Below, in pieces: positions 36,923 to 63,552 of a stretch of 64,000 bases of DNA. This stretch comes from an uncultured Christensenella sp. (GTDB lineage: Bacteria > Bacillota > Clostridia > Christensenellales > UBA1242). The translations under genes and the position numbers were made by a program. The notes beneath the pieces were generated by a model. That model was given only the letters and a program-made list of their open reading frames with translations. It had not been told where the DNA came from and did not search any database. The stretch covers positions 73,386-137,385 of the forward strand of contig CAZOFH010000001.1 in assembly GCA_964579205.1 (NCBI GenBank), written 5' to 3'. The number at the start of each line of letters is the position of its first letter. Within the stretch, counting starts at the first letter, position 1.

Positions 36923-38482
36923 TTATATACTCAGCAATTTTATCAGACTGTCCCTGTCGATAGCAGTCAAGAATAGATACAGTCTAGGTCCCTTTGACTT
37001 GCCCAACAACAGGTTGTACACAATCTCAAAAAATCTCTTTTGCCTAGCCTTGTCTGGCTCGCCATTGATCTTTGGGATGTCGTACAATAGCGTCTGCATC
37101 TCCTCTTGCCCCATATCTCTATCACGTATCGACGCTAGCAGCACCTCTACCCAGCCGCGCTCCTCACTAGAGAGCATGCTAGCAAACTCAGTGTTGACAT
37201 CTGCCAAAAGCGTATTGATAGACTCAGGACAATAATTCTTGAGCCAGTAGGTGATCCTCTCGAATCTATCCTCGATCTGCTCACGAGTACAGGTCTCGCC
37301 CACTTTATTTAGCAGGCTCACCAGCATATCTAGGTCAAAATTGACAATAGGTGCAAAAGCGGCAATGTTTTGCGCGCTCACAGGACAGTGACAATATTCG
37401 CCCTTGGTGCTAGATAGCGCCATCTCCATAATGCGATTCACTACCTCATCAGCCTCACCCGAAATGTAACTAGCGTACATCCTGTCGAACTCGTGATAGG
37501 TACGCAGCACGTCTTCGTCTAGCGAAATGTCAAAAGCCTTTTCTGGCAAAAACCTAGTGAACATCCACAAGATTATCTCAGGCGAATATACCTTGAGCAT
37601 CTTGGCAGGGGTCATTACATTACCCTTGCTACTACTCATTTTGCCATTCAAGCCCTTGATACCGATAAACTCATACCCGCGATATAGCGGGGCCTCACCA
37701 CCGAAGATCGGCCCCACGATAGCGCTAGCCACCTGCGCACTGCCACCCTCGGTACTATGATCCTTGCCACCCGGCTCAAAGCAGATGTGCTCTCTCGCCC
37801 AACGCATAGGCCAGTCAGCCTTCCACACTAGTTTTGCATTGTGATCGGCACGCAGGTCAATAGTGCCTGAGTAGCCACATTTACATTCATAATCGAGTAC
37901 CGCCCCATTCTCTCGGTCGGCTAGCACCGTGGTCGTGTGCTTGTGACACTGAGGACAGTAAACCTGCACAGGGTAATATTGCTCCCGCTCTTGTGCACTC
38001 TCCTCTTGCGTCTTGAAACTCATAATAATGTCATAAATCTCGCGCCTCTTTTGCACTGCCAAAATGATACTGTCTGCATAATCGCCACGCAGGTAGCGCT
38101 CAGACTGTCTCACGTGCTCTACCTGCACGCCCAGAGTATCGAGAGCCTCTACAAAAGGCTGCTCAAAGTGCCTCGCCCAACTGTCGTGACAGCCCATAGG
38201 GTCAGGAATGTCGTCTAACGCGCACTTGACATATTTTACAAAGTCCTGATTTTGGTCGGCAGGGACCTTGCGCAATCCGTCAAAGTTGTCCCAAAAGAAC
38301 AAAAAGCGCGTCTTTTTGCCCCTGTCTTGCAAAGCTTTGACCACAAACCAAGTCGTGATCACCTCGCGCAAATTACCCATATGCACCTCGCCACTAGGGC
38401 TAATACCACTAGCGCAGGTAAAAACCTCAGCATCAGGATATTTTGCTATTACCTGTTCTGCAATTTCGTCTGCCCAATACAT
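36923..38482 (-). CDS. lysS: class I lysine--tRNA ligase
   Basis: 519 aa with SGISPSGEVHMGNLRE (HIGH-type) and KMSSSKG (KMSKS). No class II motifs. Confidence 0.88.
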   Translation of the reverse strand: MYWADEIAEQVIAKYPDAEVFTCASGISPSGEVHMGNLREVITTWFVVKALQDRGKKTRFLFFWDNFDGLRKVPADQNQDFVKYVKCALDDIPDPMGCHDSWARHFEQPFVEALDTLGVQVEHVRQSERYLRGDYADSIILAVQKRREIYDIIMSFKTQEESAQEREQYYPVQVYCPQCHKHTTTVLADRENGAVLDYECKCGYSGTIDLRADHNAKLVWKADWPMRWAREHICFEPGGKDHSTEGGSAQVASAIVGPIFGGEAPLYRGYEFIGIKGLNGKMSSSKGNVMTPAKMLKVYSPEIILWMFTRFLPEKAFDISLDEDVLRTYHEFDRMYASYISGEADEVVNRIMEMALSSTKGEYCHCPVSAQNIAAFAPIVNFDLDMLVSLLNKVGETCTREQIEDRFERITYWLKNYCPESINTLLADVNTEFASMLSSEERGWVEVLLASIRDRDMGQEEMQTLLYDIPKINGEPDKARQKRFFEIVYNLLLGKSKGPRLYLFLTAIDRDSLIKLLSI

Positions 38483-40659: not shown

Positions 40660-40730
40660 ACAGTCTCATTTTGTGTTCGGCAAAAGCCTCACAGAGATTC
40701 CACTGCTGACGATGTCCGCCGCTGAATGAC
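40660..40730 (-). repeat. hairpin-box repeat, copy C (3' of cca)
   Basis: Sense strand: GTCATTCAGC GGCGGAC ATC GTCAGCA GTGGAATCTCTGTGAG..TGCCGAAC. Confidence 0.7.
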
Positions 40731-40813
40731 TGGCAGGAGCGAGCCTCTGACCCCATTTATTAAAATAATGCAGGGGTGCATCTGCATCGTAGTCAAGTTA
40801 CTCTTATCTCTTG

Positions 40814-40891
40814 TATGACGGCGAACATCGTACCCACCTCGCAGCGCAGGTGTGCGAGCACCCCGTGAAATCTGTGCGCCATAGGCGAACC
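40814..40891 (+). repeat. composite repeat (TATGACGG..CACCT-loop-AGGTG module plus partial hairpin-box 3' half), copy D (3' of dnaB)
   Basis: TATGACGGCGAACATCGTACCCACCTCGCAGCGCAGGTGTGCGAGCACC followed by CCGTGAAATCTGTGCGCCATAGGCGAACCC. Confidence 0.6.
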
Positions 40892-41009
40892 CAAAACAAA
40901 AAAGACCCAAAAGGACTTTTTTCTATTTATCAGATTATTTTATCCGTTTTTTATCGGATTGCTCTATCATTATTTTTTCCGTCAATACTGGTTGAATGAG
41001 AGTCTACGA

Positions 41010-47487: not shown

Positions 47488-47532
47488 TATGACGGAGAGT
47501 GTTATACGCACCTCGCAGCGCAGTTGAGCACC
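47488..47532 (+). repeat. TATGACGG..CACCT-loop module, degenerate copy
   Basis: TATGACGGAGAGTGTTATACGCACCTCGCAGCGCAGTTGAGCACC aligns with 40814-40862. Confidence 0.55.
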
Positions 47533-48284: not shown

Positions 48285-48400
48285 AGTCTGCAGGTTCGGA
48301 GGCAATCCCATAATGAGGCTTGCCGCTCATTCCCCTGCCGGCGGCTTGCCATAGTGTGAGCTATCGCACACACTATAAAACAAGGATAATTTCTTCAACT

Positions 48401-48484
48401 GTCATTCAGAGGCTGATGCAATCAGCCGTGGAATCTGTGAGGCTCACCGTGCCGAACCCCCACCCCGCTATTGCTTGCACATAG
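48401..48484 (+). repeat. hairpin-box repeat, copy E1 (3' of cwlD)
   Basis: GTCATTCAGA GGCTGAT GCA ATCAGCC GTGGAATCTGTGAG GCTCACCGTGCCGAACCCCC..ATTGCTTGCACATAG. Confidence 0.8.
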
Positions 48485-48517
48485 AACAAGAGGCAGGAAG
48501 ACTATTCGATTAATAAT

Positions 48518-48593
48518 GTCGCAGGCTTTGCCTTCGACGGGGTTCGCTATCGCTCACGGATTCCACGGCGAACGATGCCCGCATCTGAATGAT
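48518..48593 (-). repeat. hairpin-box repeat, copy B (3' of adhesin 1)
   Basis: Sense strand: ATCATTCAGA TGCGGGC ATC GTTCGCC GTGGAATCCGTGAG CGATAGCGAACCCC, then GTCGAAGGC-AAA-GCCTGCGAC hairpin. Confidence 0.8.
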
Positions 48594-48694
48594 AATAGAA
48601 GGAAATTAACCTTTATAATAAATAATAATTGCAGGTTCGGGGTGAAGTCCTTGCAAGGAGTCTTCCCCGCATTGCGCCCCGCCCCCCAAACGCC

Positions 48695-48720
48695 AAAAAG
48701 GATAGTCTCCTATCCTTTTT
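48695..48720. terminator. bidirectional intrinsic terminator (adhesin 1 / cwlD side)
   Basis: A5-GGATAG-TCTC-CTATCC-T5. Confidence 0.8.
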
Positions 48721-48771: not shown

Positions 48772-51558
48772 TTAGACTGGCTCAAAAACGGCGATTACTA
48801 CCGAGTCCATTACTTGCGATTTTTGGAAATGCGCCACCGCAGTGGTGCCCAGCGAATTGCCGTCCACATCCGTCCATTTGACGAACTTGTACCCATCCAT
48901 TGCCACAGCCTCGCAAGTGATCGTGCCAGCGTCGGCAAGGTTGTCTAAATCAGCCCCCAAGATGTACGCAGCGCCGCCCGTGGTCGCCTGCAGAGCCACA
49001 CCATTTACCGAGCCACTCGACCTCAGCCCCGAATACGCTCCCGAAGCAGTCTGCACATACACAGGAATGCTACCGTCCGCCTCAAAATCGTGCGAAATCA
49101 CCTCAAAATTGAGCGCAAACGCATTACTCTGCTCGTTCGCAAAATAGGTTACATTGGTAGCGAAATTAGTATTGCCCAATTCCGCCTTGCAATATGTGAT
49201 CTTTATCCAATTTACATTGTCAAATGACACCTTTGACACGTGGTACCCAGATGCAGGGATGATTTTGATAGTCGCGTTCTGCACTTCAGCATCGGCATAC
49301 TGTTCGCAAGAAAATTGCGTTGTCGCCCCCGTCATCGTCACACTTGCGCAAGCAATCCAGTACGCGTACAGCGTGAGGTTGGCAGTGTATTTTGACACGG
49401 TAATGTTTGGGTCACCGTCTATGTCGTAGATTTTCTGCCCACCGCCATTGGTCTGTGTAAAGTACCCGCGGAAAGAGTACCCTCGTCGAGTCGGCGGCGT
49501 GATGCTCAGCAAACTCACGTCGTATGTAGCCGTCACCGAGGTCGTGCCAGCATTCGTCGCCGATTGATTGTCTAGCGTAATCGTCACCGACACCGCCGTC
49601 CACACCGCATATAGATCCACCGTAGCGCCATTTGTGGAAGTCAAATTTCGTACGCTCGCCCCGTCAGTATACGACATCGAGCCCGTACTGCTGGTCGCCC
49701 AGCCCGAGAATGTATACCCCGTCCGCGAAAACGCATTGCTAGTCAGACTCTTGTACGAATTGTACGTGTGCGTCGAATTACTCATCGACCCGCTACCACC
49801 ATTTGAGTTATATCTTACATAATAAGTGTTGGCAGTCCATCCAGCATACAGTCTCACAGTACCGCCGTCTACCGCTGTCAAATTGCTGACACTGGCACCG
49901 TCGTTGTACTGTTTTGAACCGCTACTACTCGTCGCCCAGCCCGAGAATGTGTACCCTGTACGCGTGAATGAACAAGTACTCAAGTTTTTTGACACGCCAT
50001 AAGTGTGCGATGTACTGCTCATCGAGCCGCTACCACCATTTGAGTTATAACTCACTGTGTAGGTGTGCGGTATCCATTTTGCATATATAGTGGTGTTTGA
50101 TGAAAATGCCGATGTGCTGCTGACAGGAGTGCCGCTAGCGGTGTAGACTTGAGTGCCACCGCCATTTGTACTGGTATAATACCCTGCGAAATCATACCCC
50201 GTGCGAGTCGGAGTGCTGATATTATATAGGGTGTCGCCCGAATTGGCTAGCATCTTGTCCGTGCCGCCGCTACCGCTTTGCTTGTCAAAAGTCAGCACCG
50301 TGCCGTCGTGATGCGCCATCACATCAGTGAGCGATAGCAGTAGACACGGACGCACCGCGAGGCTAGAACATACACTACCACTACCCTCGGTATTGCCTGC
50401 TGCAGGCAAAGCGTACACCGACATAGAATAAGATGACTGACTACAACTTGCCGAACGAGTCCAAGTCCTGCAATACGCAGTACCGCTATCGTTGGTTTGA
50501 CTGGTACCTATGTAACTAGTCGATATCGAAGATGTGCTGCCATTGTATGTAGAGCGTTCTGCTGTGCTCATCTCCCACAGCCCGTCATAATCATCACAGT
50601 ACCCTACCTCAGCCATACTAGGTAGCCATAGATAATCTTCTCCCCAACTAGTGTAGTAGGTCGAATTTGCTGAGTAAAAATCCTGACTGCTGCTCACCCA
50701 AGAACCAGTGTAATTACTACTATTAGTCGAGGTCAAAGCCTCATTCGTTAGCCAATATGTAGACTGGTTTCTATTCGCTGGGTTTTGCAAAGCATTCATC
50801 CACGACATATTGTACGGCGTCTTGAGATAATAGGTTAGCCCCTTGCTTGCCACAGTGTATAGAGCGAAAATATGGTCGCTACTACCACTATAAGTATATT
50901 GCTCTATAGTGTCATTGTCTGTTGAATATCTCTTGCTATACGGGTTGTTGAGGGTCGCTGTACGAATGTAACTAGTACCGTACATGCTACTAGGGTATGT
51001 GCCAGCATACCTGTGGTACCAGTCGGCAGACCAGTCAGAATACAGCCCACCATTGACCAAGCCATAGTGTTCGCCCAAATTGTTGCTAGTAGTGCCCCAC
51101 TCAGATTGATAGTTGTTGCTCAGCCATAGCGTGGCTACTAGATCGCCATACCTGTCTTTGGAAACAAATGTCACTATCCAGTCTAGCCCGCCGAGCCGCA
51201 CTACTATACTTTGCCCATTAGTCTTGTTGTATGTTTTGGCACGCAAAGTAGCCGCAGTGCGCGGAGTAGTAGTCGCGCTCATACTGTTCATTTGATCATA
51301 AATATTCCCAGCACTGCCGTATATCATATTGACCATAGTCTCCACAGTATCACTATCAAAAGGTTTTTGCCCTGTCGCCGTAGTCTTGTTGACTAGCAGT
51401 TCATTCACACGCTTGAATGAACTAGTGTTTGACGAGGTAAACGCGTTTGACGGACGAAAAACCGTGTACCATAGCACCACCCCTGCGCCTATCACAGTGA
51501 TAATTATCATCAATATGGATATTATGCCACCCGTGGTGCGTACCCACTGCTTTTTCAT
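48772..51558 (-). CDS. N-terminally anchored surface protein with InlB B-repeat (Listeria-Bacteroides repeat) units, paralog 1
   Basis: 928 aa. N-terminal TM (IISILMIIITVIGAGVV), then a head domain of about 380 aa (..LWLPS..E.., W.RS, AVRPCLLL), then 4 units of TR.GY.F.GW...., then a shared C-terminal module. Confidence 0.9.
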   Translation of the reverse strand: MKKQWVRTTGGIISILMIIITVIGAGVVLWYTVFRPSNAFTSSNTSSFKRVNELLVNKTTATGQKPFDSDTVETMVNMIYGSAGNIYDQMNSMSATTTPRTAATLRAKTYNKTNGQSIVVRLGGLDWIVTFVSKDRYGDLVATLWLSNNYQSEWGTTSNNLGEHYGLVNGGLYSDWSADWYHRYAGTYPSSMYGTSYIRTATLNNPYSKRYSTDNDTIEQYTYSGSSDHIFALYTVASKGLTYYLKTPYNMSWMNALQNPANRNQSTYWLTNEALTSTNSSNYTGSWVSSSQDFYSANSTYYTSWGEDYLWLPSMAEVGYCDDYDGLWEMSTAERSTYNGSTSSISTSYIGTSQTNDSGTAYCRTWTRSASCSQSSYSMSVYALPAAGNTEGSGSVCSSLAVRPCLLLSLTDVMAHHDGTVLTFDKQSGSGGTDKMLANSGDTLYNISTPTRTGYDFAGYYTSTNGGGTQVYTASGTPVSSTSAFSSNTTIYAKWIPHTYTVSYNSNGGSGSMSSTSHTYGVSKNLSTCSFTRTGYTFSGWATSSSGSKQYNDGASVSNLTAVDGGTVRLYAGWTANTYYVRYNSNGGSGSMSNSTHTYNSYKSLTSNAFSRTGYTFSGWATSSTGSMSYTDGASVRNLTSTNGATVDLYAVWTAVSVTITLDNQSATNAGTTSVTATYDVSLLSITPPTRRGYSFRGYFTQTNGGGQKIYDIDGDPNITVSKYTANLTLYAYWIACASVTMTGATTQFSCEQYADAEVQNATIKIIPASGYHVSKVSFDNVNWIKITYCKAELGNTNFATNVTYFANEQSNAFALNFEVISHDFEADGSIPVYVQTASGAYSGLRSSGSVNGVALQATTGGAAYILGADLDNLADAGTITCEAVAMDGYKFVKWTDVDGNSLGTTAVAHFQKSQVMDSVVIAVFEPV

Positions 51559-51660
51559 ACCCATTCCCCTCCAGTTGTATTATTTTTTTGTGTCAGGGGC
51601 ACAGCCCCTGCATTGTAAAAAGGATAGACGGTCAAAATATACCTGTATAATGGCAAGCAT

Positions 51661-51705
51661 CATACGCACCCCCCGCAACGCGGGTGTACGAGCAGCCCCG
51701 CCGTG
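51661..51705 (-). repeat. CACGG..CACCC-loop-GGGTG module directly after the adhesin 2 stop codon
   Basis: Sense strand CACGGCGGGGCTGCTCGTACACCCGCGTTGCGGGGGGTGCGTATG aligns with 40817-40857, with a T:A to C:G exchange in the stem. Confidence 0.55.
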
Positions 51706-54700
51706 TCACTCGCTAGACATATTGTCGAGGTCGGTATTGATGTTGCCTGAGGTGATTGGGGCAAAGACAGCCACTACCACAGAGTCCATTACTTCAGACT
51801 TTTTAAAGCGCACCGAGGCAGCCGTGCTCAATACCGCACCGCTAGAGTCGGTCCAGTGCTTGAATTCATACCCGTATTGCGTGACAAACGCCGCACAAGT
51901 GATCGTGTCGTTATCAGCGAGATTTTCGACATCATCGCCCACGATGAATGCCTTACCGCCAAAGGTCGATTGCACCGCCACCCCTTCTAGTTTTGTAGCA
52001 CCTGCTGTCTTTAGTCCAGAATAGTTGCCTGATACAGTCTTGAGGTAAATTATAATACATCCGTCATCCTCAAAATCGTGCAGCATCATCTCAAATTTGA
52101 GCGCGAATACATTACTCTGCTCGTTCGCAAAATAAGTAACATTCATCGCATACGGCGTGTTGCCGATATCCGCCTTGCAGTAGATGACATCTATCCAGTG
52201 AGTATTGTCAAAAGAAAGTTGCGATATGTGATAGCCTGTCGCAGGAGTAATTTTGATAGTGGCATTAGGCATATATTTATCAAAGAACATCTCATCTGCA
52301 AATTGCGTCGTAGCGCCTGTCACTGTGGCATTTAGATAAGGTGCCCAGTACGCATATAAGGTGACATTTGAGGCAAAGGTCGACTTTGTGACACTCGGAG
52401 TGCCGTCCGCATTATAGATTTTTTGCCCTGCGCCATTGGTCTGTGTATAATATCCTGCGAAAACGTGTCTTGATGGACCGCCTGACGGAGGTGTAATATT
52501 AGACAATGCCGCATTGTATGTCGCAGAGACTGATGTGCTGCCTGCAGTCGTGGCGGATTGATTGTTGAGAGTGATTGTCACAGTCACCCCTTGCCATACA
52601 GCATACAGGTTGACCGTAGCACCGCTCGTGGTAGTCAAGTTTCTGACACTTGCACTATTATTATATACTTTAGCCCCATTACTGCTCGTTGCCCAGCCCG
52701 AGAACGTGTAGCCTGTGCGAGTGAAGGCATTAGCAGTTAGATTTTTGTATGTCCCATATTCATGAGTTGAGTTACTCATCGTGCCGCTACCGCCGTTTGC
52801 ATTGTATTTTATATAATAGGTGAACCCAGTCCATTTTGCATACAGAGTAGTGCTAGATGTAAATGTCGAGGTAGAGTTAACTGGCGTACCATCTGCATTG
52901 TAGATTTTCGTTCCCCCACCATTTGTACTAGTGTAATATCCTCCGAATGTATAGTAATCCTTTGTAGGTGGAGTGATATTAGGCAAAGTATTATTCTCTA
53001 CCGTAACGGATGTAGTACCTGCAGTCGTCGCAGATTGATTGTCAAAAATGAGGGTTGTAGTGTTATCGCCTACTCCTCCTTCCCATACTGCATAAAGGGT
53101 AATCGTCGAACCAGCTGATGCAGTCAAATTACTTACGCTTTGCCCATTAGTATAAGCCACTGACCTAATTGGACTAGTCGACCACCCGGCGAAAAAACTG
53201 TCAGTTTTGGTAAATGTATTTGTAGTCAAGTTCTTTGCCACATCATAGGTGTGAATAGAATCGCTCATCGTACCTGTGCCACCGTTAGCATCATATTTTA
53301 CCGTGTATGAGATAGGTGTCCATTGGGCATACAGTGTGGTATTAGATGTGAATGTCTCGGTTGAATAAGTTGAGTAACTACTACTCTTGTAAACTTGCGT
53401 ACCTCCACCGTTTTGCTGAGTATAATATCCGCCGAATGTATACCCTGTACGGCTAGGCTCCTCAATAGCTCTTAAATTCTTTATTTGCGTGCCAGACGCT
53501 ACAAAATACTTTTGAGTCCCTGCAAAAGTAGCAGATTGATTGTCAAAGGTTATAGTAATATCGGTAGAATCATTACTCCTCCACACTGCATAAAGATATT
53601 CCGAATTACCACTGTTCATATTGATGACACTTTGCCCATCATAATAATCTACCCTTCCATCGTTAGCATAAGAACTATATCGTGCCCAACCTTTGAAAGT
53701 ATATCCAGAACGAGTAAACGTATTTGAATTCAAGTACGATGCCACGCCGGCAGTATGAGTAGAGTTACTCATAGTACCTGTGCCGCCATTGGCTTTGTAA
53801 TACACGGTGTATGTTCTAGGTGTCCATTTGGCGTAAAGCGTGATATCGGAGGTGAATGTTTCGTCTGAGGAAGTTGGTGTACCATTTGAATTATAAACTT
53901 GCGTACCGCCACCGTTTGGCAGGCTATAATACCCACCAAAAGTGTAGCCAGAGCGCGAAACAGTCTCATTCATTGCAGGTAAATTACCATTTGGCACTAT
54001 CCAATGAACCTTACACCCAACAGTAGTAGGGACCTGCATATCAAAAGTGATAGATATCATTGTGCCACTGTATGCCTCCCAAACAGCATATAGATTAATC
54101 GTAGAATAATCTGATGATGACAAATTGACCACATTCGCTTGATCCGCATAGGCCACGCTACCGCTAGCACTCGTCGCCCAACCTTTAAACAAATATCCCC
54201 TTCGAGTATAATTGCATAAAGACAAGTTCTTTGCACTATCATAAGTATGAGTAGTATTACTCATTGAGCCGCTACCACCGTTTGCGTTGTATTTGACATT
54301 ATAAACAATCGCATCCCATTTCGCATAAAGGACAGTGTTTGAGGTAAATGTAGATGCCGATATACCTGATACACCACTTGACAAATATACCCTTGTTCCC
54401 GCTCCATTAGTACTAGTGTAATAACCTCCGAATTTGTATCCCGTACGAGTAGGTGGAGTAATATCGGGTAAAGTATTAGTATCTAGCGTAACAGATGTAG
54501 TACCTCCTGTCCCGCCTTGTTTATCAAGAGTGAGGACTATTACATTCCATTTTGCATAAAGAGTAGTGTCCGATGCAAAAGTAGATGTAGAGTTGACTGG
54601 CGTACCATCTGCATTATATATTTTCGTTCCTCCACCATTGGTGCTCGTGTAATAACCGTCGAATTTGTATCCCGTACGAGTAGGCGGAGTAATGGATGGC

Positions 54701-56010
54701 AGGGTATTATTTGACACCGTAATAGATAAAGATCCACCTATACCGCCTTGTCTATCAAGCATGAGCATAACAGCATTGGTATCAGCATCAACGGCATCTG
54801 CTGCACTGTCTAGATTAAGTAGCAGGCACGGACGGACGGCGTTAGGATACCAATCAACATCTGGGCCACTATCACCATAAATATCACTTCCACAACCATC
54901 GACACTATATGCAGCAGAAGATCCATAGTCCGCAAGCACCGAGCGACTCCATGAATATGGATAAACTTCAGTATTCTCAGTTACATTATCCGAGATATAT
55001 TCTGAGCACCCATCATATGTAGACCGCTCAGCATTATTTGTCTCCCAAAGTCCATCATTTGTATCATCTAATCCCATTTCTACAATGCTTGGCAAAAATA
55101 GATAATCTGTCCCCCAGTTTGTATATCCTGCTATGCTAGTATAATCTAATTCAAGTGAACCATAAACACCATAACTACCCGATGCTGTTGACAAAGAATC
55201 GTTACTATGCAAACTTTCCTCACCTATCAAACTAGGGTCTTGCACAGCATTTATCCAAGGCATCTTATTAGGGGTAACCAAATAATTTGTCAGTCCTTTG
55301 CTAGCGACGGTATACAACGAGAAAATATGGTCAGAGGATTGGGGGGTACCATTTGTCAATGTTTCACTATCTGTGGCATAAGTTCTGTTGTTAGGATTAT
55401 TAAGTGTCTCTACTCGAATATAACTAGTACCATACATATCCGCAGGATACGTCGAATTTTCTGTGATTGAGCCTCTATTCTCATAATACCAATCCCCCGA
55501 CCAAATAGAGTAGAGCCCACCATTTACCAATGCTGTGTCATAGTCATCATTCAATCTTTGCTGTAGACCAATCTCATCACTATAATCTTCACCACCTGTA
55601 CCGTTCCAGCCCCAAGCCTCTTGGTGATTGTTACTAAGCCACAGGGTAGCAATGAGGTTGCCGTCAGTATCATTTGAGACGTAAGTCACAATCCAGTCTA
55701 GTCCGCCGAGGCGCACTACGATACTCTTGTTAGCGGTCTTGTTGTATGTTTTGGCGCGCAAATCCGCCGCGGTCAGAGGAGTGACCGCGGTGCTGGTTTT
55801 TAGACTAGACAACTGAGTGCTGACGCTGCCGCTAGCCCCATAAATCATATTAACCAAAGTTTTGAGAGTTGCGCGCCTAAAAGGAGTCGATCCTGTCGCC
55901 GTCGTTGGGTTTGTAAGTAATTCATCAATATGTACAAAACTATTCATATTCGATGACGAAAAGGCATCGGGATCCGATACCTTTTTGACTGTGGATAAGT
56001 GACTCACCAA
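51706..56010 (-). CDS. giant InlB B-repeat surface protein, paralog 2; the as-sequenced ORF lacks its start codon and part of its membrane anchor
   Basis: 1434-aa ORF with the same head and C-terminal modules as paralog 1 and about 12 B-repeat units. The frame stays open upstream through LISLIIVVVISLSAWLL (a TM helix) to a poly-G tract. The ATG plus RBS at 56095 is one frame off. Confidence 0.88.
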   Translation of the reverse strand: MVSHLSTVKKVSDPDAFSSSNMNSFVHIDELLTNPTTATGSTPFRRATLKTLVNMIYGASGSVSTQLSSLKTSTAVTPLTAADLRAKTYNKTANKSIVVRLGGLDWIVTYVSNDTDGNLIATLWLSNNHQEAWGWNGTGGEDYSDEIGLQQRLNDDYDTALVNGGLYSIWSGDWYYENRGSITENSTYPADMYGTSYIRVETLNNPNNRTYATDSETLTNGTPQSSDHIFSLYTVASKGLTNYLVTPNKMPWINAVQDPSLIGEESLHSNDSLSTASGSYGVYGSLELDYTSIAGYTNWGTDYLFLPSIVEMGLDDTNDGLWETNNAERSTYDGCSEYISDNVTENTEVYPYSWSRSVLADYGSSAAYSVDGCGSDIYGDSGPDVDWYPNAVRPCLLLNLDSAADAVDADTNAVMLMLDRQGGIGGSLSITVSNNTLPSITPPTRTGYKFDGYYTSTNGGGTKIYNADGTPVNSTSTFASDTTLYAKWNVIVLTLDKQGGTGGTTSVTLDTNTLPDITPPTRTGYKFGGYYTSTNGAGTRVYLSSGVSGISASTFTSNTVLYAKWDAIVYNVKYNANGGSGSMSNTTHTYDSAKNLSLCNYTRRGYLFKGWATSASGSVAYADQANVVNLSSSDYSTINLYAVWEAYSGTMISITFDMQVPTTVGCKVHWIVPNGNLPAMNETVSRSGYTFGGYYSLPNGGGTQVYNSNGTPTSSDETFTSDITLYAKWTPRTYTVYYKANGGTGTMSNSTHTAGVASYLNSNTFTRSGYTFKGWARYSSYANDGRVDYYDGQSVINMNSGNSEYLYAVWRSNDSTDITITFDNQSATFAGTQKYFVASGTQIKNLRAIEEPSRTGYTFGGYYTQQNGGGTQVYKSSSYSTYSTETFTSNTTLYAQWTPISYTVKYDANGGTGTMSDSIHTYDVAKNLTTNTFTKTDSFFAGWSTSPIRSVAYTNGQSVSNLTASAGSTITLYAVWEGGVGDNTTTLIFDNQSATTAGTTSVTVENNTLPNITPPTKDYYTFGGYYTSTNGGGTKIYNADGTPVNSTSTFTSSTTLYAKWTGFTYYIKYNANGGSGTMSNSTHEYGTYKNLTANAFTRTGYTFSGWATSSNGAKVYNNSASVRNLTTTSGATVNLYAVWQGVTVTITLNNQSATTAGSTSVSATYNAALSNITPPSGGPSRHVFAGYYTQTNGAGQKIYNADGTPSVTKSTFASNVTLYAYWAPYLNATVTGATTQFADEMFFDKYMPNATIKITPATGYHISQLSFDNTHWIDVIYCKADIGNTPYAMNVTYFANEQSNVFALKFEMMLHDFEDDGCIIIYLKTVSGNYSGLKTAGATKLEGVAVQSTFGGKAFIVGDDVENLADNDTITCAAFVTQYGYEFKHWTDSSGAVLSTAASVRFKKSEVMDSVVVAVFAPITSGNINTDLDNMSSE

Positions 56011-56050: not shown

Positions 56051-56095
56051 CTAATTAATGCCCCCCCCCCCCCGGGTCAGAAAGCCTTTATTCAT
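56051..56095 (-). other. orphaned 5' start segment of the adhesin 2 gene (MNKGFLTRGGGGIN-stop), out of frame with the main ORF
   Basis: AAGGAGAAAAACGCG-ATG. It reads through the G13 tract into TAG. Removing one G joins it to the TM helix and the main ORF. Confidence 0.7.
56061..56073 (-). repeat. homopolymeric tract, C13 on plus strand = G13 in the coding sense
   Basis: Counted directly in the sequence: 13 consecutive C. Confidence 0.95.
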
Positions 56096-56306
56096 CGCGT
56101 TTTTCTCCTTTTTTTGCCTATTTTTTGACCCCAGTTTTGGGGGGCGAAAATGCCCACTTTTTACAACTTTCGCCCGCCGCAAAACTTGAGGTGTTTGTTA
56201 ATTTTTGGCTGCCGTCCGCTTTAACAAAAGCGCACGGAATATTCCTGTCATCCTGATGACAGTTTTCTTTCAGCCAAACCGACCTTTGCGATTGCTTTAC
56301 ATTATT
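56096..56306 (-). promoter_or_regulatory. long structured 5' leader of adhesin 2
   Basis: Three-way junction at 56205-56277: closing helix TTGGCTG/CAGCCAA, a 7-bp hairpin CTGTCAT/ATGACAG and an 11-position hairpin with one mismatch. There is also an 8-bp helix GGGCGAAA/TTTCGCCC at 56142-56175. Confidence 0.5.
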
Positions 56307-56412: not shown

Positions 56413-56450
56413 TGACAAAAAACAAAACGACAACGCACTGTCGGCAGTGC
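56413..56450 (-). terminator. intrinsic terminator closing the E2 repeat / ttcA 3' region
   Basis: GCACTG-CCGA-CAGTGC followed by GTTGTCGTTTTGTTTTTTG on the minus strand. Confidence 0.6.
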
Positions 56451-56557
56451 TATGTGCAAACAAATGCAATATGGGGTTCGCCTGCGGCTCACAGAGTCCA
56501 CGGAGTGCCTTGCACTCCTCTGAATGACACTGCGCGGCTGCACCCCGAACCCGCAAT
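56450..56557 (-). repeat. hairpin-box repeat, copy E2 (3' of the ttcA-like gene)
   Basis: Sense strand: ATTGCGGGTTCGGGGTG..GTCATTCAGA GGAGTGC AAG GCACTCC GTGGACTCTGTGAG CCGCAGGCGAACCCC..ATTGCATTTGTTTGCACATAG. Confidence 0.8.
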
Positions 56558-56588
56558 AATCAAATTAATTGTGGCGTAGATCCCCATA

Positions 56589-56672
56589 GCGGCTTGCCGC
56601 AAGGCGCCCGCAGGGTGCCTGATGCGCCGAATGGCGCATAGTGCGTGCGACAGCACGCACGCGGCAAGCCGC
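56589..56672. repeat. perfect 84-nt four-way junction (cloverleaf-like palindromic unit)
   Basis: P1 is 12 bp (GCGGCTTGCCGC/GCGGCAAGCCGC). It encloses a 7-bp arm (one G:T pair), a 6-bp arm and an 8-bp arm with 3-4 nt loops and 0-3 nt linkers. Confidence 0.75.
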
Positions 56673-56741
56673 CCCCGTCTAGAGACACGCACAGTTCAAC
56701 AGACAGCGCCCCCACTACCACGCTACTGCCACAACCCACGC

Positions 56742-57607: not shown

Positions 57608-57856
57608 ATGGCAACACCACATCCACATATTATCAACATAGTAGCCGACTACTATCTGCTGCACAAATCGACGATGCGTGACTGCGCAAAGCATTTTGGG
57701 CTAGGCAAAAGCACCATACACAACTATCTGCACATTTATCTAAAAAAAGTCGACCCCGAAAAATACAAAAAAGTGAGTGCTTTATCGCAACTCAACTTTT
57801 CTGAAAAACACATTCGCGGCGGAAACGCCACGCGTCAAAAATTTAGACCAGAGTAA
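57608..57856 (+). CDS. spoIIID: sporulation transcriptional regulator SpoIIID
   Basis: 82 aa from MATPHPH with a GAGG RBS. GLGKSTIHNYL HTH and KHIRGGNATRQKF align with B. subtilis SpoIIID (GVSKSTVHKDL, RHLRGGEATKLKY). Confidence 0.8.
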   Translation: MATPHPHIINIVADYYLLHKSTMRDCAKHFGLGKSTIHNYLHIYLKKVDPEKYKKVSALSQLNFSEKHIRGGNATRQKFRPE

Positions 57857-58832
57857 GTTTACGCTTGTTCGCAAAGTACCACCAAGCGAACCCACCACCT
57901 ATCAAGAGGCAACTGCCACCAGCAAAGTATAGCCATAGCATACTAGGATTTTTTTCCCATTTGGCGTACAGTGTCACAGGGGTGGTAAAAATGTAATACT
58001 TGCCCACGTGAGAGCCTTCGGCACAATCAGGAGTCGTATACCAGCCCGCAAAAGTGTAGCCCGGGCGAGTGGGATTGAGATCGGTGAGCAAGCCTTTTTG
58101 CCCATAGTTGTCATACGCGTAGTCGATATTCGCCCTAAAAGGGATCGGATCATACCCTAGCGACTCGTCGGCAAAGGTGATAGTATAATTGAGCATAGCG
58201 AACTTGCCATACAAGTTGATATTGCTAGTCACGCCGCTCAAAGTGGTAATAAGCGTCTGATACAATGGGTCCTGATACCATCCGACGAACTCGTGACCTG
58301 CGCACCTCGGGATAAACTCATCCGCGGTCAAGTCGATATTGGTAGCAGCAGTGACGGTATTATTGAGTGCTGTAAAACCAGCCGCAGGGGTGACCGCACC
58401 ATACTCTACCCCAGTATATGCAAAACTAACTGTATACTCGGTCAACTGCCAAAAGGCGTAGAGTGTAATAATGCCAGCGACAGCCATATCCTGTGCATCA
58501 GTCGCGGTCAATACAAAATTGCCGCTACTGTCTACATCCAAAATCGAAGTTTTACTAAATCCCCAATACGCGAATGTATACCCTGCTGCAGCACTAGGCG
58601 CCTGCAATGTCAACGGCAAGGCAGACGCTGCCACGGTAGCGGGATTGGCAGTAGTGAGAGCGGGATGCCCCTCTGACGAATCGAGATACTGGATAGTATA
58701 CATAATATCCCCTGCTGTCTCGCCCTCTGCAAATGCTGAGCGCATATTCAAAAACGCACTCCCCGAAAACACAAAAAACGAGCAGAGCAAAGCACAAATA
58801 AAACCTATCAAAACAGACTTTTGCTTGTACAT
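57843..58832 (-). CDS. InlB B-repeat protein with N-terminal signal peptide and C-terminal TM anchor
   Basis: 329 aa from MYKQKSVLIGFICALL with a GAGG RBS. Four GY.F.GW-type units. The C-terminal WLYFAGGSCLLIGGGFAWWYF helix is followed by KRK. Confidence 0.85.
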   Translation of the reverse strand: MYKQKSVLIGFICALLCSFFVFSGSAFLNMRSAFAEGETAGDIMYTIQYLDSSEGHPALTTANPATVAASALPLTLQAPSAAAGYTFAYWGFSKTSILDVDSSGNFVLTATDAQDMAVAGIITLYAFWQLTEYTVSFAYTGVEYGAVTPAAGFTALNNTVTAATNIDLTADEFIPRCAGHEFVGWYQDPLYQTLITTLSGVTSNINLYGKFAMLNYTITFADESLGYDPIPFRANIDYAYDNYGQKGLLTDLNPTRPGYTFAGWYTTPDCAEGSHVGKYYIFTTPVTLYAKWEKNPSMLWLYFAGGSCLLIGGGFAWWYFANKRKLTLV

Positions 58833-59008
58833 TAATTTTACCTCGACATTATTATAACCTAAAAATGACATAAAATCAATTATTTTGGGGCGTTTGGTCG
58901 AGTAAAAATAATTTTTTGCACTTTCAGACGCACTCCGAGCCTCCCCCGCCCACAAAAACGGCAAGCACTACCGCGCGATAGGCAGACACTCACACCCCCG
59001 ACACGAGA

Positions 59009-59031
59009 CAAAAAAAAGACCGCCTAGGTCT
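59009..59031 (-). terminator. intrinsic terminator after the 82-aa gene
   Basis: AGACC-TAGGC-GGTCT followed by T8 on the minus strand. Confidence 0.65.
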
Positions 59032-59065
59032 TTCCCTCATCGAGAAAACGCGGCGGTCTAAAATA

Positions 59066-59314
59066 TTAGTTTGTGATAATACTCTTGATTTCGTTGAGTT
59101 GCTCAAGGTTGAGAATCTCAATCTTTTTGTGAGCGTCCTGATATGCCAATTTGATAATTTGCGGGTAATCGCCCTCTTCTACCTTCTTTAGCATAATGTC
59201 AGCGAGACTGACCAACTCTTCTTTGGTCTGATAATCAATCGAAGTCAAAATCTTCTCAAACACATTGTAACTCATTTCTACTACTTTTGGGTCATCCATA
59301 GTCAAATTTTCCAT
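59066..59314 (-). CDS. small acidic helical protein (82 aa), unknown function
   Basis: GAGAGG RBS, 27 nt downstream of the 1266-aa ORF. Confidence 0.6.
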   Translation of the reverse strand: MENLTMDDPKVVEMSYNVFEKILTSIDYQTKEELVSLADIMLKKVEEGDYPQIIKLAYQDAHKKIEILNLEQLNEIKSIITN

Positions 59315-59341
59315 AAAATGTTACCTCTCAAATTATTCAAA

Positions 59342-62300
59342 TTAGAATTTCTCTTGCTCAGTCTGTGCCGAAGATGTGCTCTCTGCGGTATACTCATCCA
59401 AAACCTTTTGCCCAGTGACGCGAGTCGTCTCGTGGGTAGCGGTCTGAGTCTTGCGGATAGTCATAGATTCGGCTCTGTCGATAGCAGCACCAGTCAAAGC
59501 GCTCTGACGCAAATCCCTAATCTCGCCCGACTCGCTTTCAGGAGGAGTGACGCCATCTAGTATTGCATAAACAGTATCTCTGAGGCTATCCTTGAGCAGC
59601 GCCCTACCAGCCTCTTCTCTAGCAGCACGAGTGCTCTTGCCCTCTAGTTGGGTAGCGCCGCTGGTCTCTAGCATCTTGTTTAACTTGCTAGTAGTAACGC
59701 TAATCTTTTCGCTGCCAAACTTGTCTTTGTTGACCTCACAGAACTCCTTGACAAGGTTCACAATATAGCCAGTGAGTCTATCAATTTGCTCGACTGCCTG
59801 AGTCTCCTCAGGGAAACTCTGTTTGTTATAACTGCTGTTGGTCTGCGTCCTGCCGTGACTGGCTGGGTACATTACCACAGTCGCAACTGCGCCGACCGAA
59901 GCGCGCTCTTTGTAATACTTGCGCTCAGCCTCGAGGACATGCTTTTCCTCCTCGCGGCAATCCTCTAGCATCTTGGCACACTCAGCAGTTTGAGTCATTC
60001 TCTCACTAGAGTACTCCATCACTAATTCAAACAAAATCTCTCTACACTTGGTCTTTGCCTGAGTGTCGCGCTTTGAAATCGCCTCTGCAGACTCAAAACG
60101 CGCTGCGTCGTAGACAAAGTCAACCTGCTTTAGCACAGGAGCCTCCTTTTTGGCTTTGGCAATAGCGGTCTTGACCTCTACTGTGCTCTCTGTATTGGTT
60201 CCAAAAGTAGCGCCTTTGTCTATCACGGTGTCGGTGCTTTGGGTAGTGCTTTGGGTGGTTTGACTAGTGGTATCAACCACCTGCTCTGTCCCAAGTCCTT
60301 GGGCTTTTGCCTCGGCGTTCTCTTGCGAAGCATTAGTCTCTTGGGTACTACCTGTCACACCACCGAGCAATGCAGGAGACGGTGCTGGCGCGACAGCCTG
60401 CTGAGCAAATTCGTCCAAAGACTTTTGCTGCCCGCCCGACTGGCCAGTGCCATACCTATCCAAAGTCATCTGCACCACTCTATCAGCGTTTGTGTTGTGC
60501 TGGCTAGTACCTGCTGAATAAGCGTGCCCGCCGTTTTGGGTGAATATCCTCACGCTGTCGGCAATGATGTAGTAAATGATGGTATTAAAATAGTTGTTGT
60601 AAGTATTATTAATATTAATATTGATATTACCTGCAGGAGCCTGCTGCCCAGCGTTTTGATTTTGCTGAGCGTGCTCTTTTGCCGCGTCAAAGATCGCCTG
60701 CTGCTCAGGAGTAACGGTAGACTCTGCCTCTTGTTCACCAGTCTGCCCTTGCTCGCTGCCCACTCTCAAACCTGTCTGTGCAGACCTGTTAGGTGCGGCT
60801 GGCTCTGGCGCTGGCTCTGGATTAGGTGCAACCTCTGTATCGGGGCTCTCACCAGTCTGCTCTTGCGTATTGGCAGAGTCGACAATCTTGCCACGGCTCT
60901 TGTCCATACGACGGAAAACATCAGCCATCACACGCTGCTGCTCATCAGTTAATTCTACAACCGTGCTATTAGGCGTCTCAGGAGTAGGTGTAGTCTCAGA
61001 AGTCTCGTCTTGGGGAGTACCATTAGTCTCTGTATTTTGCCCAGAGGTCTGCTCGTCGCCCACTCTCAAACCTGTCTGTGTAGACCTGTTAGGAGCGGCT
61101 GGCTCTGGCGCTGGCTCTGGATTAGGTGTAACCTCTGTATCGGGGCTCTCACCAGTCTGCTCTTGCTGTGCATCAGGCTTTTGCTTGCTTTCTTCCGCCT
61201 CTGCTCGTCTAGCGGCACGCTCTTTACGCCTACGCTCGACCTCCTCGTCGGTTATTTCCTCACCCGGCTCAAAGCCTACAGTGTCTGGCAAATCATCTCT
61301 CGTCAAATCCTCCAGAGAAGGAATGATCCTTTGTGGCTTGCCAGCAGTATCGGTTTTATCAGTATTATCTGTATCGCCATTTTCCTCGCCAGAAGTGCCC
61401 TCTTGCTCGGACTGCTCTTCTTTCTTTACTCTAGTGATACGGTCAAAAACCCCTTGCATCCTACTCATCTGCTCAGGTGTCAGCCCAGCACCCTGCGGCA
61501 CTGTAGGCTCTGGGGTGAATTTTGGCTCAGGCGCTGGTGCTGGGACAGTCTCATCCTTATGTTGAGGTTCTGGCGTAACCGTCTCACCACCTGGTGTCAT
61601 TTCGCGCCCTGCCTCTTGTCCCTCAGGCGACGCCGACTGCTCCTCGGTCTGCTCTCCTGTAGGCTGCCTACCAGCCTCAAATATACGCATCAGAGCCTGC
61701 TCGATAGCGGCAGAATTCATATCTGGCTCGAGTCTCAGGCTTGGGTCGGTAATGACATTGTTGGCATAAATCAACCCTTGCATACTAGGGTTGCCGTCCA
61801 TTTTGGCAGCAATCGCGTCGAGCGAAATCCCCTTTGCCTCTGCATAAGCCTGCATATCAGGATTTAGGTCATAAGCAAAATTGTTTACACCAATCGCGTA
61901 CATATTAGCGATCAACGGCATAAAGTGTGCCGCATCTTTCTCATCCTCTAGCCCATCCATCACGATGCTAAGGTGCTGCTCAGCCTCTAGCCTAAAGGTG
62001 TCGCTCATCAAGCGCGCCTGCTCTACAGGCAAATCAAGCATATAGCACACGTCACTAGCGATAAGACACGTAGCAGCGCTAGTCAGTCTACCTCTCACCC
62101 TCAAGGCATTACTATTGCTAAATACCTCAGGAGAAGGCAAATTGGTCGCAGCCTGATTAGCCAAAATCACGCGCTCAGCCAAATTACCTAATTGGTCAGT
62201 CTGAAAGCCACATAGGCATTTGATCACGCCGTACAATTTCTCAGTGTTTGTGTTGTCAGCAGGGTACTCAATCTTGTAGCGTTTTGGCCAGCCAGTAGGG

Positions 62301-63142
62301 CTAATACCGTTTTTGAGCGGCGAAACTCTCCTCTTGATGACGTCGAGCGCACCAAAGAACCTCTTCGGTCTGAATCTAATAGCCTTTTCACTCACCGAAC
62401 TACCGTCAGCATCACCCATTGCTGCGAACTCAATACCCACTTTGTTTGAGATACTGCGCATCACTTGCTCAAACTTTTCATCATTGCTGTCGAACTCACG
62501 AGTAAAAGTCTTGAGCGGCACCCCATTCTCTAAGGTAGGAGTGTAGTAGCCCAAGTTTGGGTCAGCTTTGGCAGGCTTTGTATTAGCGTCGAAATTCTCC
62601 GGATGCTTGAGATTGCGCTCAGCACGCAGTACCGCGATGAATTGCTTTACACTCATAGTAGGCTCTCTGTCGGTAATCTTTGCCCACGCGTCCATAAAAG
62701 GAGTGTCCACGCTAGCGGCACCCGAATTGAGCTTTATCCTATAAATAGCCTGCTTTATCTCAGAATTGCGAATCTTACCCAACAGCGCACTACTATTGTA
62801 CCCGTGCGAAAGCAATGAGTACGCAGTCCTCATTTCAGGGCTCACCTTGTGCGCATCCAAATCCGCTAATAAATAAGGATTGTGAAATGCCGCCTCAAAA
62901 TCAGCGCGCGTGCTCAACTTTGCACTCTCAAAAGAATGCCCATAAAAATCACTCGGAATAACTCGAGTCAAGTCCTCTATCATCCTACGCGAAGAAAAAG
63001 GCACACGCCCGACCTTGAGCTTTGCACGGGTAAACCAAAAGACTCTTTTGCGAATGTTGTCTTGAAACTCAAAACCGCTCAAAACGCCATTCTCCGCGGT
63101 CAAATCCTCCTCGTATGGTGAAAATCTCTCTCCTTGAGACAT
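59342..63142 (-). CDS. 1266-aa orphan protein: N-terminal globular region of about 500 aa, long Pro/Glu/Thr/Gln-rich disordered centre, helical C-terminal region
   Basis: Uninterrupted ORF with TAGGAGGG RBS and its own promoter. No signal peptide, and no family recognised. Confidence 0.8.
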   Translation of the reverse strand: MSQGERFSPYEEDLTAENGVLSGFEFQDNIRKRVFWFTRAKLKVGRVPFSSRRMIEDLTRVIPSDFYGHSFESAKLSTRADFEAAFHNPYLLADLDAHKVSPEMRTAYSLLSHGYNSSALLGKIRNSEIKQAIYRIKLNSGAASVDTPFMDAWAKITDREPTMSVKQFIAVLRAERNLKHPENFDANTKPAKADPNLGYYTPTLENGVPLKTFTREFDSNDEKFEQVMRSISNKVGIEFAAMGDADGSSVSEKAIRFRPKRFFGALDVIKRRVSPLKNGISPTGWPKRYKIEYPADNTNTEKLYGVIKCLCGFQTDQLGNLAERVILANQAATNLPSPEVFSNSNALRVRGRLTSAATCLIASDVCYMLDLPVEQARLMSDTFRLEAEQHLSIVMDGLEDEKDAAHFMPLIANMYAIGVNNFAYDLNPDMQAYAEAKGISLDAIAAKMDGNPSMQGLIYANNVITDPSLRLEPDMNSAAIEQALMRIFEAGRQPTGEQTEEQSASPEGQEAGREMTPGGETVTPEPQHKDETVPAPAPEPKFTPEPTVPQGAGLTPEQMSRMQGVFDRITRVKKEEQSEQEGTSGEENGDTDNTDKTDTAGKPQRIIPSLEDLTRDDLPDTVGFEPGEEITDEEVERRRKERAARRAEAEESKQKPDAQQEQTGESPDTEVTPNPEPAPEPAAPNRSTQTGLRVGDEQTSGQNTETNGTPQDETSETTPTPETPNSTVVELTDEQQRVMADVFRRMDKSRGKIVDSANTQEQTGESPDTEVAPNPEPAPEPAAPNRSAQTGLRVGSEQGQTGEQEAESTVTPEQQAIFDAAKEHAQQNQNAGQQAPAGNINININNTYNNYFNTIIYYIIADSVRIFTQNGGHAYSAGTSQHNTNADRVVQMTLDRYGTGQSGGQQKSLDEFAQQAVAPAPSPALLGGVTGSTQETNASQENAEAKAQGLGTEQVVDTTSQTTQSTTQSTDTVIDKGATFGTNTESTVEVKTAIAKAKKEAPVLKQVDFVYDAARFESAEAISKRDTQAKTKCREILFELVMEYSSERMTQTAECAKMLEDCREEEKHVLEAERKYYKERASVGAVATVVMYPASHGRTQTNSSYNKQSFPEETQAVEQIDRLTGYIVNLVKEFCEVNKDKFGSEKISVTTSKLNKMLETSGATQLEGKSTRAAREEAGRALLKDSLRDTVYAILDGVTPPESESGEIRDLRQSALTGAAIDRAESMTIRKTQTATHETTRVTGQKVLDEYTAESTSSAQTEQEKF
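60755..61166 (-). repeat. in-frame direct duplication with exactly 300-bp period inside the orphan gene
   Basis: About 112 bp at 60755-60866 is nearly identical to 61055-61166. It encodes QEQTGESPDTEV.PNPEPAPEPAAPNRS.QTGLRVG twice. Confidence 0.9.
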
Positions 63143-63395: not shown

Positions 63396-63471
63396 CTCTA
63401 TGCAAATAGTTTCTTTTTTGGGTTCGCTACCACTCTCAGATCCCACGCGGTATTGCATACCGCTCTGGATG
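63396..63471 (-). repeat. hairpin-box repeat, copy E5 (3' of adhesin 3)
   Basis: Sense strand: CCATCCAGA GCGGTAT GCA ATACCGC GTGGGATCTGAGAG TGGTAGCGAACCC..ATTTGCATAGAG. Confidence 0.75.
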
Positions 63472-63499
63472 GACAAAGGAAGAAAGTAATTAATAAGGA

Positions 63500-63526
63500 G
63501 AAAAGCGCCCCACTTGGTCGCTTTTC
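63500..63526 (-). terminator. possible terminator after adhesin 3
   Basis: GAAAAGCG/CGCTTTTC 8-bp stem with an 11-nt loop and a weak T tract. Confidence 0.4.
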
Positions 63527-63552
63527 TAATTATCGTATTATTCATCTTTTTA

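Follow-up and report, generated by a model that had tools for sequence, protein, structure and literature searches.

Modular Hairpin-Forming Intergenic Repeats in a Lineage of Uncultured Clostridia

Introduction

Several families of short repeats are known from the spacers between bacterial genes. The REP, BIME and REPIN sequences of Proteobacteria, which are associated with RAYT, a Y1 HUH transposase, are extragenic imperfect palindromes that occur alone or as inverted pairs; the BOX elements of Streptococcus pneumoniae are modular intergenic repeats of a Firmicute (boxA-boxB-boxC); and the NIME and Correia elements of Neisseria build spacers that are mosaics of small modules exchanged, inverted and nested between strains. 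Here we describe a repeat family, the E units, in 64,000 nucleotides of DNA (hereafter the window) from an uncultured Christensenella sp. (GenBank assembly GCA_964579205.1, contig CAZOFH010000001.1, positions 73,386–137,385, forward strand), with particular attention to the spacer at 48286–48720, which carries two facing copies, E1 and B. The E units are probably a lineage-specific, modular, repetitive extragenic palindromic family of the REP/BIME, BOX, Correia/NIME or miniature inverted-repeat transposable element (MITE) kind.

The likeness to REP/BIME elements extends beyond the short imperfect palindromes, solo or paired. Both often lie near gene 3' ends and terminators and keep their palindrome by compensatory change; the REP/BIME arm types joined by conserved linkers may be compared with the L and R arm types of a relative (locus L015, below); and the REPIN inverted doublets that form a long hairpin have a counterpart in E1 and B, as well as in the L015 pairs ab and cd. 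However, where the foot of the REP hairpin has GTAG, that of the E-unit hairpin reads CAGA (5' side) and GTGG (3' side), with no conserved GTAG; their host belongs to the Clostridia; their stem is far more variable among copies than in a REP family; and no RAYT (Y1_Tnp) was found among the called genes at the loci examined. BOX elements share with E units a Firmicute host, a modular build with conserved boxes and a variable middle, complementary ends that fold into a stable stem-loop, an intergenic location and the lack of an encoded transposase. In place of a variable number of boxB modules, E units have as their variable part a covarying hairpin or an unrelated insert, and we know of no sequence resemblance between the two families, which are set apart here by description rather than by alignment.

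NIME/Correia elements resemble E-unit spacers in their mosaic structure and in lying beside variable surface-protein genes, but the sequences differ, and E units have neither dRS3-type flanking repeats nor the TA duplication and 26-nt inverted ends. Integron attC sites also have paired conserved ends, an unpaired spacer and a central hairpin conserved in structure only, and in both cases wobble pairs imply a strand-specific fold. They differ in that E units lack the RYYYAAC/GTTRRRY core, have a much shorter core of their own, occur in both orientations and as inverted pairs, and sit among housekeeping genes, with no intI at the loci examined. As for MITEs, long imperfect inverted ends are present in E1+B and the L015 pairs and absent from the solo copies E2, E5 and C, and presence/absence with an intact empty site is seen in two strains (L019 and L020). 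The structured RNAs of Rfam share with E units a compact covarying fold, and none of those families matches. New as a family, and separated from REP by the missing GTAG and from attC by the missing core, the E units nevertheless belong in kind to a well-known class.

A Repeat Family with a Covarying Hairpin

The spacer at 48286–48720 separates an Amidase_3 gene (+ strand, stop at 48284) from the gene for a 930-aa surface protein (adhesin 1; − strand, stop at 48772). Each unit consists, in order, of box A (GTCATTCAGA), a hairpin with a 7-bp stem and 3-nt loop (P2), box B (GTGGAATCTGTGAG), a short segment that forms a small extra hairpin in some copies, and box C (GCGAACCCC). A 4-bp helix that had escaped earlier description, P1, pairs ATTC of box A with GAAT of box B and encloses P2 by way of a symmetric purine-rich 3x3 internal loop, AGA opposite GTG (GUG), giving a core of 33 nt. 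Around it lie an AT-rich leader of ~20 nt (AAGGATAATTTCTTC...), common to E1, B and E5 and replaced by a GC-rich module in E2, C and the copy at L024:25–90, and a tail of one of two types, TTGCACATAG... in E1, E2, E5 and C, and GTCGARGGCAAAGCC in B and another strain's E2 orthologue.

Scanning the window with the pattern CATTCAGA-N17-GTGGAATC (up to three mismatches) yielded five matches (48403+, 48591−, 56526−, 63471− and 40728−), where 0.52 were expected and none of 100 shuffles reached five. These are E1, B, E2, E5 and C, the five copies that an initial annotation of this DNA had listed, each at its given position. That annotation had drawn the unit boundaries too tightly, leaving out leader and tail. 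A covariance model built from the five full copies scores them at 63–78 bits (E-values of 1e-17 to 1e-22) and adds a sixth, partial copy, F (27.2 bits, E = 2e-6); beyond these six, nothing in the 64 kb falls below E = 0.1. Pattern scan and model alike substantiate the claim that the boxes flanking the hairpin are conserved.

E1 (core 48401–48461, +, 73.7 bits) comprises box A (GTCATTCAGA, 48401–48410), the P2 hairpin GGCTGAT-GCA-ATCAGCC (48411–48427), box B (GTGGAATCTGTGAG, 48428–48441), the variable small segment, and box C (CCGAACCCCC, 48452–48461); its P1 pairs ATTC at 48404–48407 with GAAT at 48431–48434. Its inverted partner B (core 48539–48593, −, 72 bits) reads ATCATTCAGA, hairpin TGCGGGC-ATC-GTTCGCC, GTGGAATCCGTGAG and GCGAACCCC. 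With their AT-rich leaders (AAGGATAATTTCTTC and AAGGTTAATTTCCTTC), the two are the facing arms of a single inverted composite of ~230 nt (48382–48612) that folds into a long imperfect hairpin (minimum free energy −91.5 kcal/mol, z-score −6.7), a fold equaled by none of 200 shuffles. The remaining full copies are E2 (core 56474–56528, −, 78.3 bits; hairpin GGAGTGC-AAG-GCACTCC), which is followed by a terminator-like hairpin at 56450–56428 (−), E5 (core 63420–63474, −, 70.8 bits; hairpin GCGGTAT-GCA-ATACCGC) and C (core 40674–40730, −, 63.1 bits; hairpin GGCGGAC-ATC-GTCAGCA). F (40841–40898, +) retains the hairpin GGTGTGC-GA-GCACCCC and boxes B and C, without a box A.

Covariation was measured over 11 distinct copies, namely those of the window (the partial F among them), variants of these in other strains, and a single sister-species copy. 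Stem positions can pair in 93% of cases, against 25%–50% when the 3' partner is slid by one to three columns; both-sided changes occur in six of the seven P2 pairs, and the observed covariation score was reached by none of 500 shuffles. Given this pairing and these double changes, the pairing is maintained, much as the initial annotation had held: stems differ from copy to copy and stay complementary. P1 covaries once, as the compensated ATCC/GGAT of E5. Copy B does need the two G:T pairs ascribed to it, and has one mismatch as well. The non-Watson-Crick pairs include five G:T or T:G and one A:C, a weak and non-significant lean toward the sense strand that would fit RNA and folded DNA alike. 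Four near-identical strains differ across the 421-nt dnaB/cca spacer by one single-nucleotide polymorphism, A or C at the closing base of the copy C stem.

The family is real and previously uncatalogued, a set of short hairpin-forming intergenic repeats. Rfam 15 gave no match in the window at the gathering threshold, and a permissive search of the spacers (E ≤ 10) and of L015 returned chance-level matches only (E ≥ 0.09 in the spacers), such as miRNA-precursor models on long hairpins. Plasmid and phage collections likewise held no match, which bears out, for these and for Rfam, the earlier failure to match the motif to a known element. An exact scan with the degenerate pattern found four matches in GTDB species genomes, six in JGI metagenomes and five in IMG/VR; all of them lack stem complementarity or a model match, and most fall within GC-rich coding sequence from unrelated organisms. 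These collections thus either do not contain the source genome or mask it. Literature searches, judged on what they returned, gave no description of the family; box sequences retrieved unrelated primer matches, and queries on GC-rich intergenic structured RNAs retrieved general surveys. Several other identities were considered and set aside. A tRNA-like nature is rejected, ARAGORN reporting no tRNA in the window; a peptide-coding role is rejected by inspection, since insertions and deletions between boxes B and C break the frame and compensatory stems argue against a peptide; and the hammerhead, K-turn, group II intron domain 5 and T-loop do not fit the boxes, with Rfam silent on all of them.

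Turnover between Strains and Distribution among Relatives

These repeats turn over faster than the neighboring genes change. In two strains (L019 and L020) with the same neighboring genes and a 97% identical amidase, the spacer is 129 nt long versus 487 nt in the window. What they lack is a block of 358 nt (window 48310–48667) that carries a partial GC-rich cloverleaf, E1, B and a second TGCAGGTTCGG module. Their empty site reads GCAATCCC|CGCATTGCG, with the junction in the loop of a GCAAT/ATTGC hairpin, and the junctions of the filled site are AATCCC|ATAATG on the left and CTTCCC|CGCATTGCG (CTTCCC|CGCATTG) on the right. Rearrangement is also seen at E2. In L025, which has the same strain background (TtcA 100% identical), the E2 loop, 3' half and tail differ, the tail being of B type, and ~120–150 nt after E2 are replaced. 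A module of ~61 nt that lies between E2 and the neighboring cloverleaf (56528–56588, −) has the opposite orientation in L025 (6130–6194), as indicated by a 24-nt reverse match of 87.5% that was extended by eye; no flanking inverted repeats were seen around this module, and the difference could be an inversion or an independent insertion. An orthologue of E5 is kept, with 92% identity over the region and one wobble and one mismatch in its stems, and its region holds an extra hairpin absent from the window and a further copy 180 nt away in the opposite orientation. This turnover between strains is the decisive result, and it does not suit a fixed 3'-untranslated-region (3'-UTR) element.

The distribution is patchy. 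The window has six copies in 64 kb, and the repeats concentrate around its variable surface-protein region; none lies in the first 40 kb, which consists of compact operons, and the covariance model found no copy in a further 8 kb of compact operons to the left of the window. The sister species (L014; cca 77% identical) has two copies, one with a perfect GGCGGAC/GTCCGCC stem in a divergent spacer and one truncated and abutting the cca stop. A more distant relative, L015 (GCA_963614045.1; cca 60% identical), has six divergent copies in 21 kb, arranged as two inverted pairs and one tandem pair, with boxes GTCATCCTGA, GGAAGRATCTGTGAG and CGAACCC and a segment of 24–27 nt between boxes A and B that is not a simple hairpin. 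Its inverted pairs ab and cd have the same boxes and a near-identical 90-nt linker containing a bidirectional terminator-like hairpin, and their inter-box segments are unrelated, which indicates modular exchange. A possible TCCTCTTC repeat near pair ab is not consistent with the TCCC/CCC found at the 358-nt block. In four other relatives that share synteny there are no copies in ~117 kb; one of these four (L042–L047) keeps the adhesin-3/SpoIIID/ttcA synteny and lacks the element where the window carries E5 and E2. Over ~190 kb drawn from other relatives' loci and from unrelated contigs, the model gave no match at E < 1 (one set was scanned at E < 0.1). Metagenome contigs often end inside or beside these modules, as expected of repeats.

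Orientation Relative to Genes

The initial annotation proposed that every copy lies in a 3' UTR, sense to the gene that ends upstream. This rule fails. Four of the six copies are in convergent spacers (E1 and B between the amidase and adhesin 1, C and F between dnaB and cca), where either orientation is automatically sense to one neighbor and is therefore uninformative. That leaves E2 and E5, whose agreement has a chance probability of 0.25, and counter-examples occur elsewhere: the sister-species copy in the divergent RNase III/amidase spacer occupies a 5' region, and an extra copy in L024 points away from the adhesin-3 operon. Of the findings named beforehand as speaking against a 3'-UTR element, then, the lack of an orientation rule is borne out, in a small sample, and a lack of covariation is not, covariation being well supported.

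Predicted terminators bear on the same question. Between the adhesin 1 stop and B lies a hairpin (GGATAG-TCTC-CTATCC, 48700–48720), preceded by an A-run and followed by a T-run, that is kept in the empty-site strains. From its sequence we read it as a predicted bidirectional intrinsic terminator common to the amidase (+) and adhesin 1 (−); it went unreported by a consensus terminator scan, probably owing to the lengthening of the stem by the A/T runs. Since this putative terminator separates B from the adhesin 1 stop, B is more likely transcribed antisense, within the amidase 3' UTR. On its own strand, copy C comes after a terminator-like hairpin (40788–40767, −), and C and F together lie between the dnaB and cca terminators. 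E5 follows a hairpin and T-run identified by eye at ~63500–63527 and is itself followed by the next gene's strong promoter-like site. E2, downstream of ttcA and upstream of its terminator-like hairpin, fits the 3'-UTR rule best. A fixed cis-regulatory 3'-UTR motif is not supported, there being no consistent sense orientation and the element being absent or replaced at orthologous sites. Nor is the element an intrinsic terminator: P2 is followed by GUGGAAUC, with no U-run, and the terminator-like hairpins are separate structures elsewhere in the spacers.

Origin of the Repeats

We favor an extragenic palindromic family because of the presence/absence polymorphism, swapping, inversion, non-orthologous sites, truncation, inverted doublets, patchiness and preference for terminator-flanked spacers. 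Four of the six copies lie between or beyond the predicted terminators of convergent genes, and such spacers are a neutral landing zone. Units, which occur solo, truncated or in inverted pairs, would spread and be rearranged as DNA: blocks would insert, in this case within the loop of a pre-existing hairpin, and copies would exchange sequence with one another and with adjoining modules through recombination or gene conversion. Most simply, the boxes and the maintained hairpin would be recognition features of a trans-acting protein that binds the folded strand; if the stem is read as a shape, its sequence could drift freely as long as both arms change together. Copies upstream of terminators would be co-transcribed and would add stable 3'-UTR structure as a by-product, not as the family's raison d'être, so that an RNA-level effect, by analogy with REP and BOX elements, is plausible but secondary. 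While the family, its covariation, the long hairpin, the strain polymorphisms and the patchy distribution are demonstrated, we infer the mode of mobilization, a cognate enzyme and any effect on RNA.

Several observations weigh against this explanation. Neither the window nor the other loci examined showed a gene for a transposase, RAYT or recombinase. There is no clear target-site duplication; only 3–4 nt (TCCC/CCC) are repeated at the junctions of the 358-nt block, so that a microhomology-mediated deletion in L019 and L020 may have taken place instead. The polymorphic block also exceeds the E1+B composite, which therefore does not mark out the mobile unit, and the copies are only ~68% identical, so there has been no recent burst. 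Finally, the single-stranded boxes are conserved across lineages in which cca is only 60% identical, and this conservation, together with the 5:1 excess of G:T over A:C, would suit a functional RNA equally well.

Such an RNA would be a dedicated cis-acting 3'-UTR element, its fold and single-stranded boxes binding a protein or blocking 3'-5' exonucleases, and we consider it rather unlikely; control of mRNA stability or definition of 3' ends, which it implies, is then rather unlikely as well. The strong pairing covariation is what it predicts, the wobbles favor the sense strand, E1 and E2 are each flanked, on the appropriate strand, by a stop codon and a terminator-like hairpin, and the purine-rich internal loop and unpaired boxes are kept even in L015; in both lineages, moreover, units tend to follow a GC cloverleaf right after stop codons. 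However, orientation is informative for two copies only, B, C, F and E5 are placed past a predicted terminator or between two, and one copy sits in a divergent 5' spacer while an extra one is antisense. E1 and B are dispensable in a strain at 97% identity, the E5 orthologue has uncompensated stem changes, relatives with the same genes lack the element, the L015 inter-box segment is not a hairpin, and the 5:1 wobble bias is non-significant and equally true of folded single-stranded DNA. Still less can be said for independent small-RNA genes, with a promoter in the AT-rich leader, a downstream terminator, and box C or a CU-rich leader pairing with mRNAs, which we regard as most improbable. In E1, B and the L014 copy, a TATAAA-like stretch does precede box A by ~22–25 nt (TATTAAT in E5), a terminator-like hairpin follows E2, and the linker of the L015 pairs contains a bidirectional one. 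Against this, a sigma-70 consensus scan found no promoter upstream of E1, B or E2 and a weak one (9/12) near E5; E2, C and L024:25–90 have GC-rich modules and no AT-rich leader; and truncated or half-replaced copies occur, as do strains that dispense with the elements.

Within the favored explanation, one specific mechanism is a folded single-stranded DNA site for a recombinase or HUH nuclease, comparable to attC, REP/RAYT or IS200/IS605-like systems. Conserved flanks around a hairpin kept only in shape match such substrates, and the block inserted in a hairpin loop, the adjoining module inverted between strains and the unrelated inserts between identical boxes in L015 are all of the kind that it would produce. 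But no integrase, Y1 transposase or RAYT was found at the loci examined, a direct reading of the units shows neither a GTTRRRY/RYYYAAC core nor a GTAG tetranucleotide, the neighbors are housekeeping genes rather than cassettes, and the 33-nt core is shorter than attC sites, which measure ~57 nt and up. We hold this mechanism to be very unlikely, and equally so the roles it would assign, with P1 as the paired boxes, the 3x3 loop as the unpaired spacer and P2 as the variable terminal structure. A further, unlikely proposal would make boxes, P1, 3x3 loop and hairpin either a site that an undescribed mobilization system of uncultured Clostridia recognizes as a folded strand, in the manner of attC or HUH substrates, or a mobile protein-binding RNA module. 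The mobilization system would insert blocks into hairpin loops, so that spacers become nested, and would leave unrelated inserts of 17–27 nt between identical boxes; the RNA module would instead rewire 3' UTRs beside phase-variable surface-protein genes.

Neighboring Genes and Other Repeats in the Spacers

The spacers hold further repeats. A module right after the amidase stop, M2 (TCTGCAGGTTCGGAGGCAATCCC, 48288–48309, +), recurs at 48629–48667, at 56541–56565 (−) and, degenerate, at 40767–40788, with a 17-nt match between 48628–48644 and 56541–56557. Between the ttcA stop and E2, 69 nt after the stop, a GC cloverleaf (56588–56673, −) has an outer stem of 12–13 bp enclosing three hairpins (fold z-score −5.0; a second z-score for this repeat is −6.0). 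Cloverleaf-like four-way junctions also lie directly after stop codons at L015:150–240 and L015:11352–11447, and one hairpin shows a compensatory change between these two L015 copies. A partial copy is found at ~48345–48378, upstream of E1, and E units tend to follow the cloverleaf, for which there was no Rfam or tRNA match.

A further repeat, D19 (TATGACGG...CACCTCGCAGCGCAGGTG), occurs on the + strand at 40814–40855, 47488–47529 and 51646–51687. It starts with a −10-like TATGAC/TATAAT, and its hairpin covaries (CACCT/AGGTG versus CACCC/GGGTG); one copy is in the amidase 5' region, and that at 40814–40855 directly precedes the partial copy F. The 18-nt palindrome CTGTCATCCTGATGACAG at 56245–56262 (also L025:~6487–6506) contains the L015 box A variant GTCATCCTGA, and a solo antisense box A lies at L024:216–225; both may be relics or target sites. 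In L015, some 550 nt of mixed composition (L015:650–1200), situated downstream of the first inverted pair, are non-coding, with no called gene and no Rfam match at E ≤ 1.

The names given earlier to the neighboring genes were sound (Amidase_3, Flg_new surface proteins, the PP-loop protein TtcA and the CCA-adding enzyme), and the spacers are, as claimed, long and locally GC-rich. The true length of the amidase is 224–235 aa. On the − strand, at 48772–56010 and 57843–63142, lie the genes for three to four big surface proteins (930, 1434, 373 and 1266 aa); the first, adhesin 1, has Listeria-Bacteroides repeats, and the many internal repeats of these genes, ~237–504 nt in length, are Listeria-Bacteroides repeat domains. 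A candidate slipped-strand phase-variation tract, a run of 14 C residues (56061–56074), precedes the start of the 1434-aa Flg_new protein (56010, −) by about 50 nt. The window also encodes a SpoIIIA operon, SpoIIID and a class I lysyl-tRNA synthetase (tRNA-synt_1f; 36923–38482, − strand), an enzyme class that is to our knowledge uncommon in Firmicutes. Named homologues of the window proteins come from metagenome-assembled genomes labeled Clostridia or Christensenellales, and exact copies of these proteins from short metagenome contigs only.

Implications

What is unusual in the E units is the freedom of the stem sequence, the occurrence in L015 of unrelated inserts where the boxes around them are identical, and a block inserted within a hairpin loop. 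Given that freedom, a cognate enzyme, if one exists, would offer a clean example of recognition by shape alone. This lineage of uncultured spore-forming Clostridia has its own structured intergenic repeats, among them the E units, the cloverleaf and smaller modules. Such repeats disrupt metagenome assemblies, and, with long GC-rich spacers and covariation, they are easily mistaken for riboswitch-like RNAs; they may also act as strain markers.

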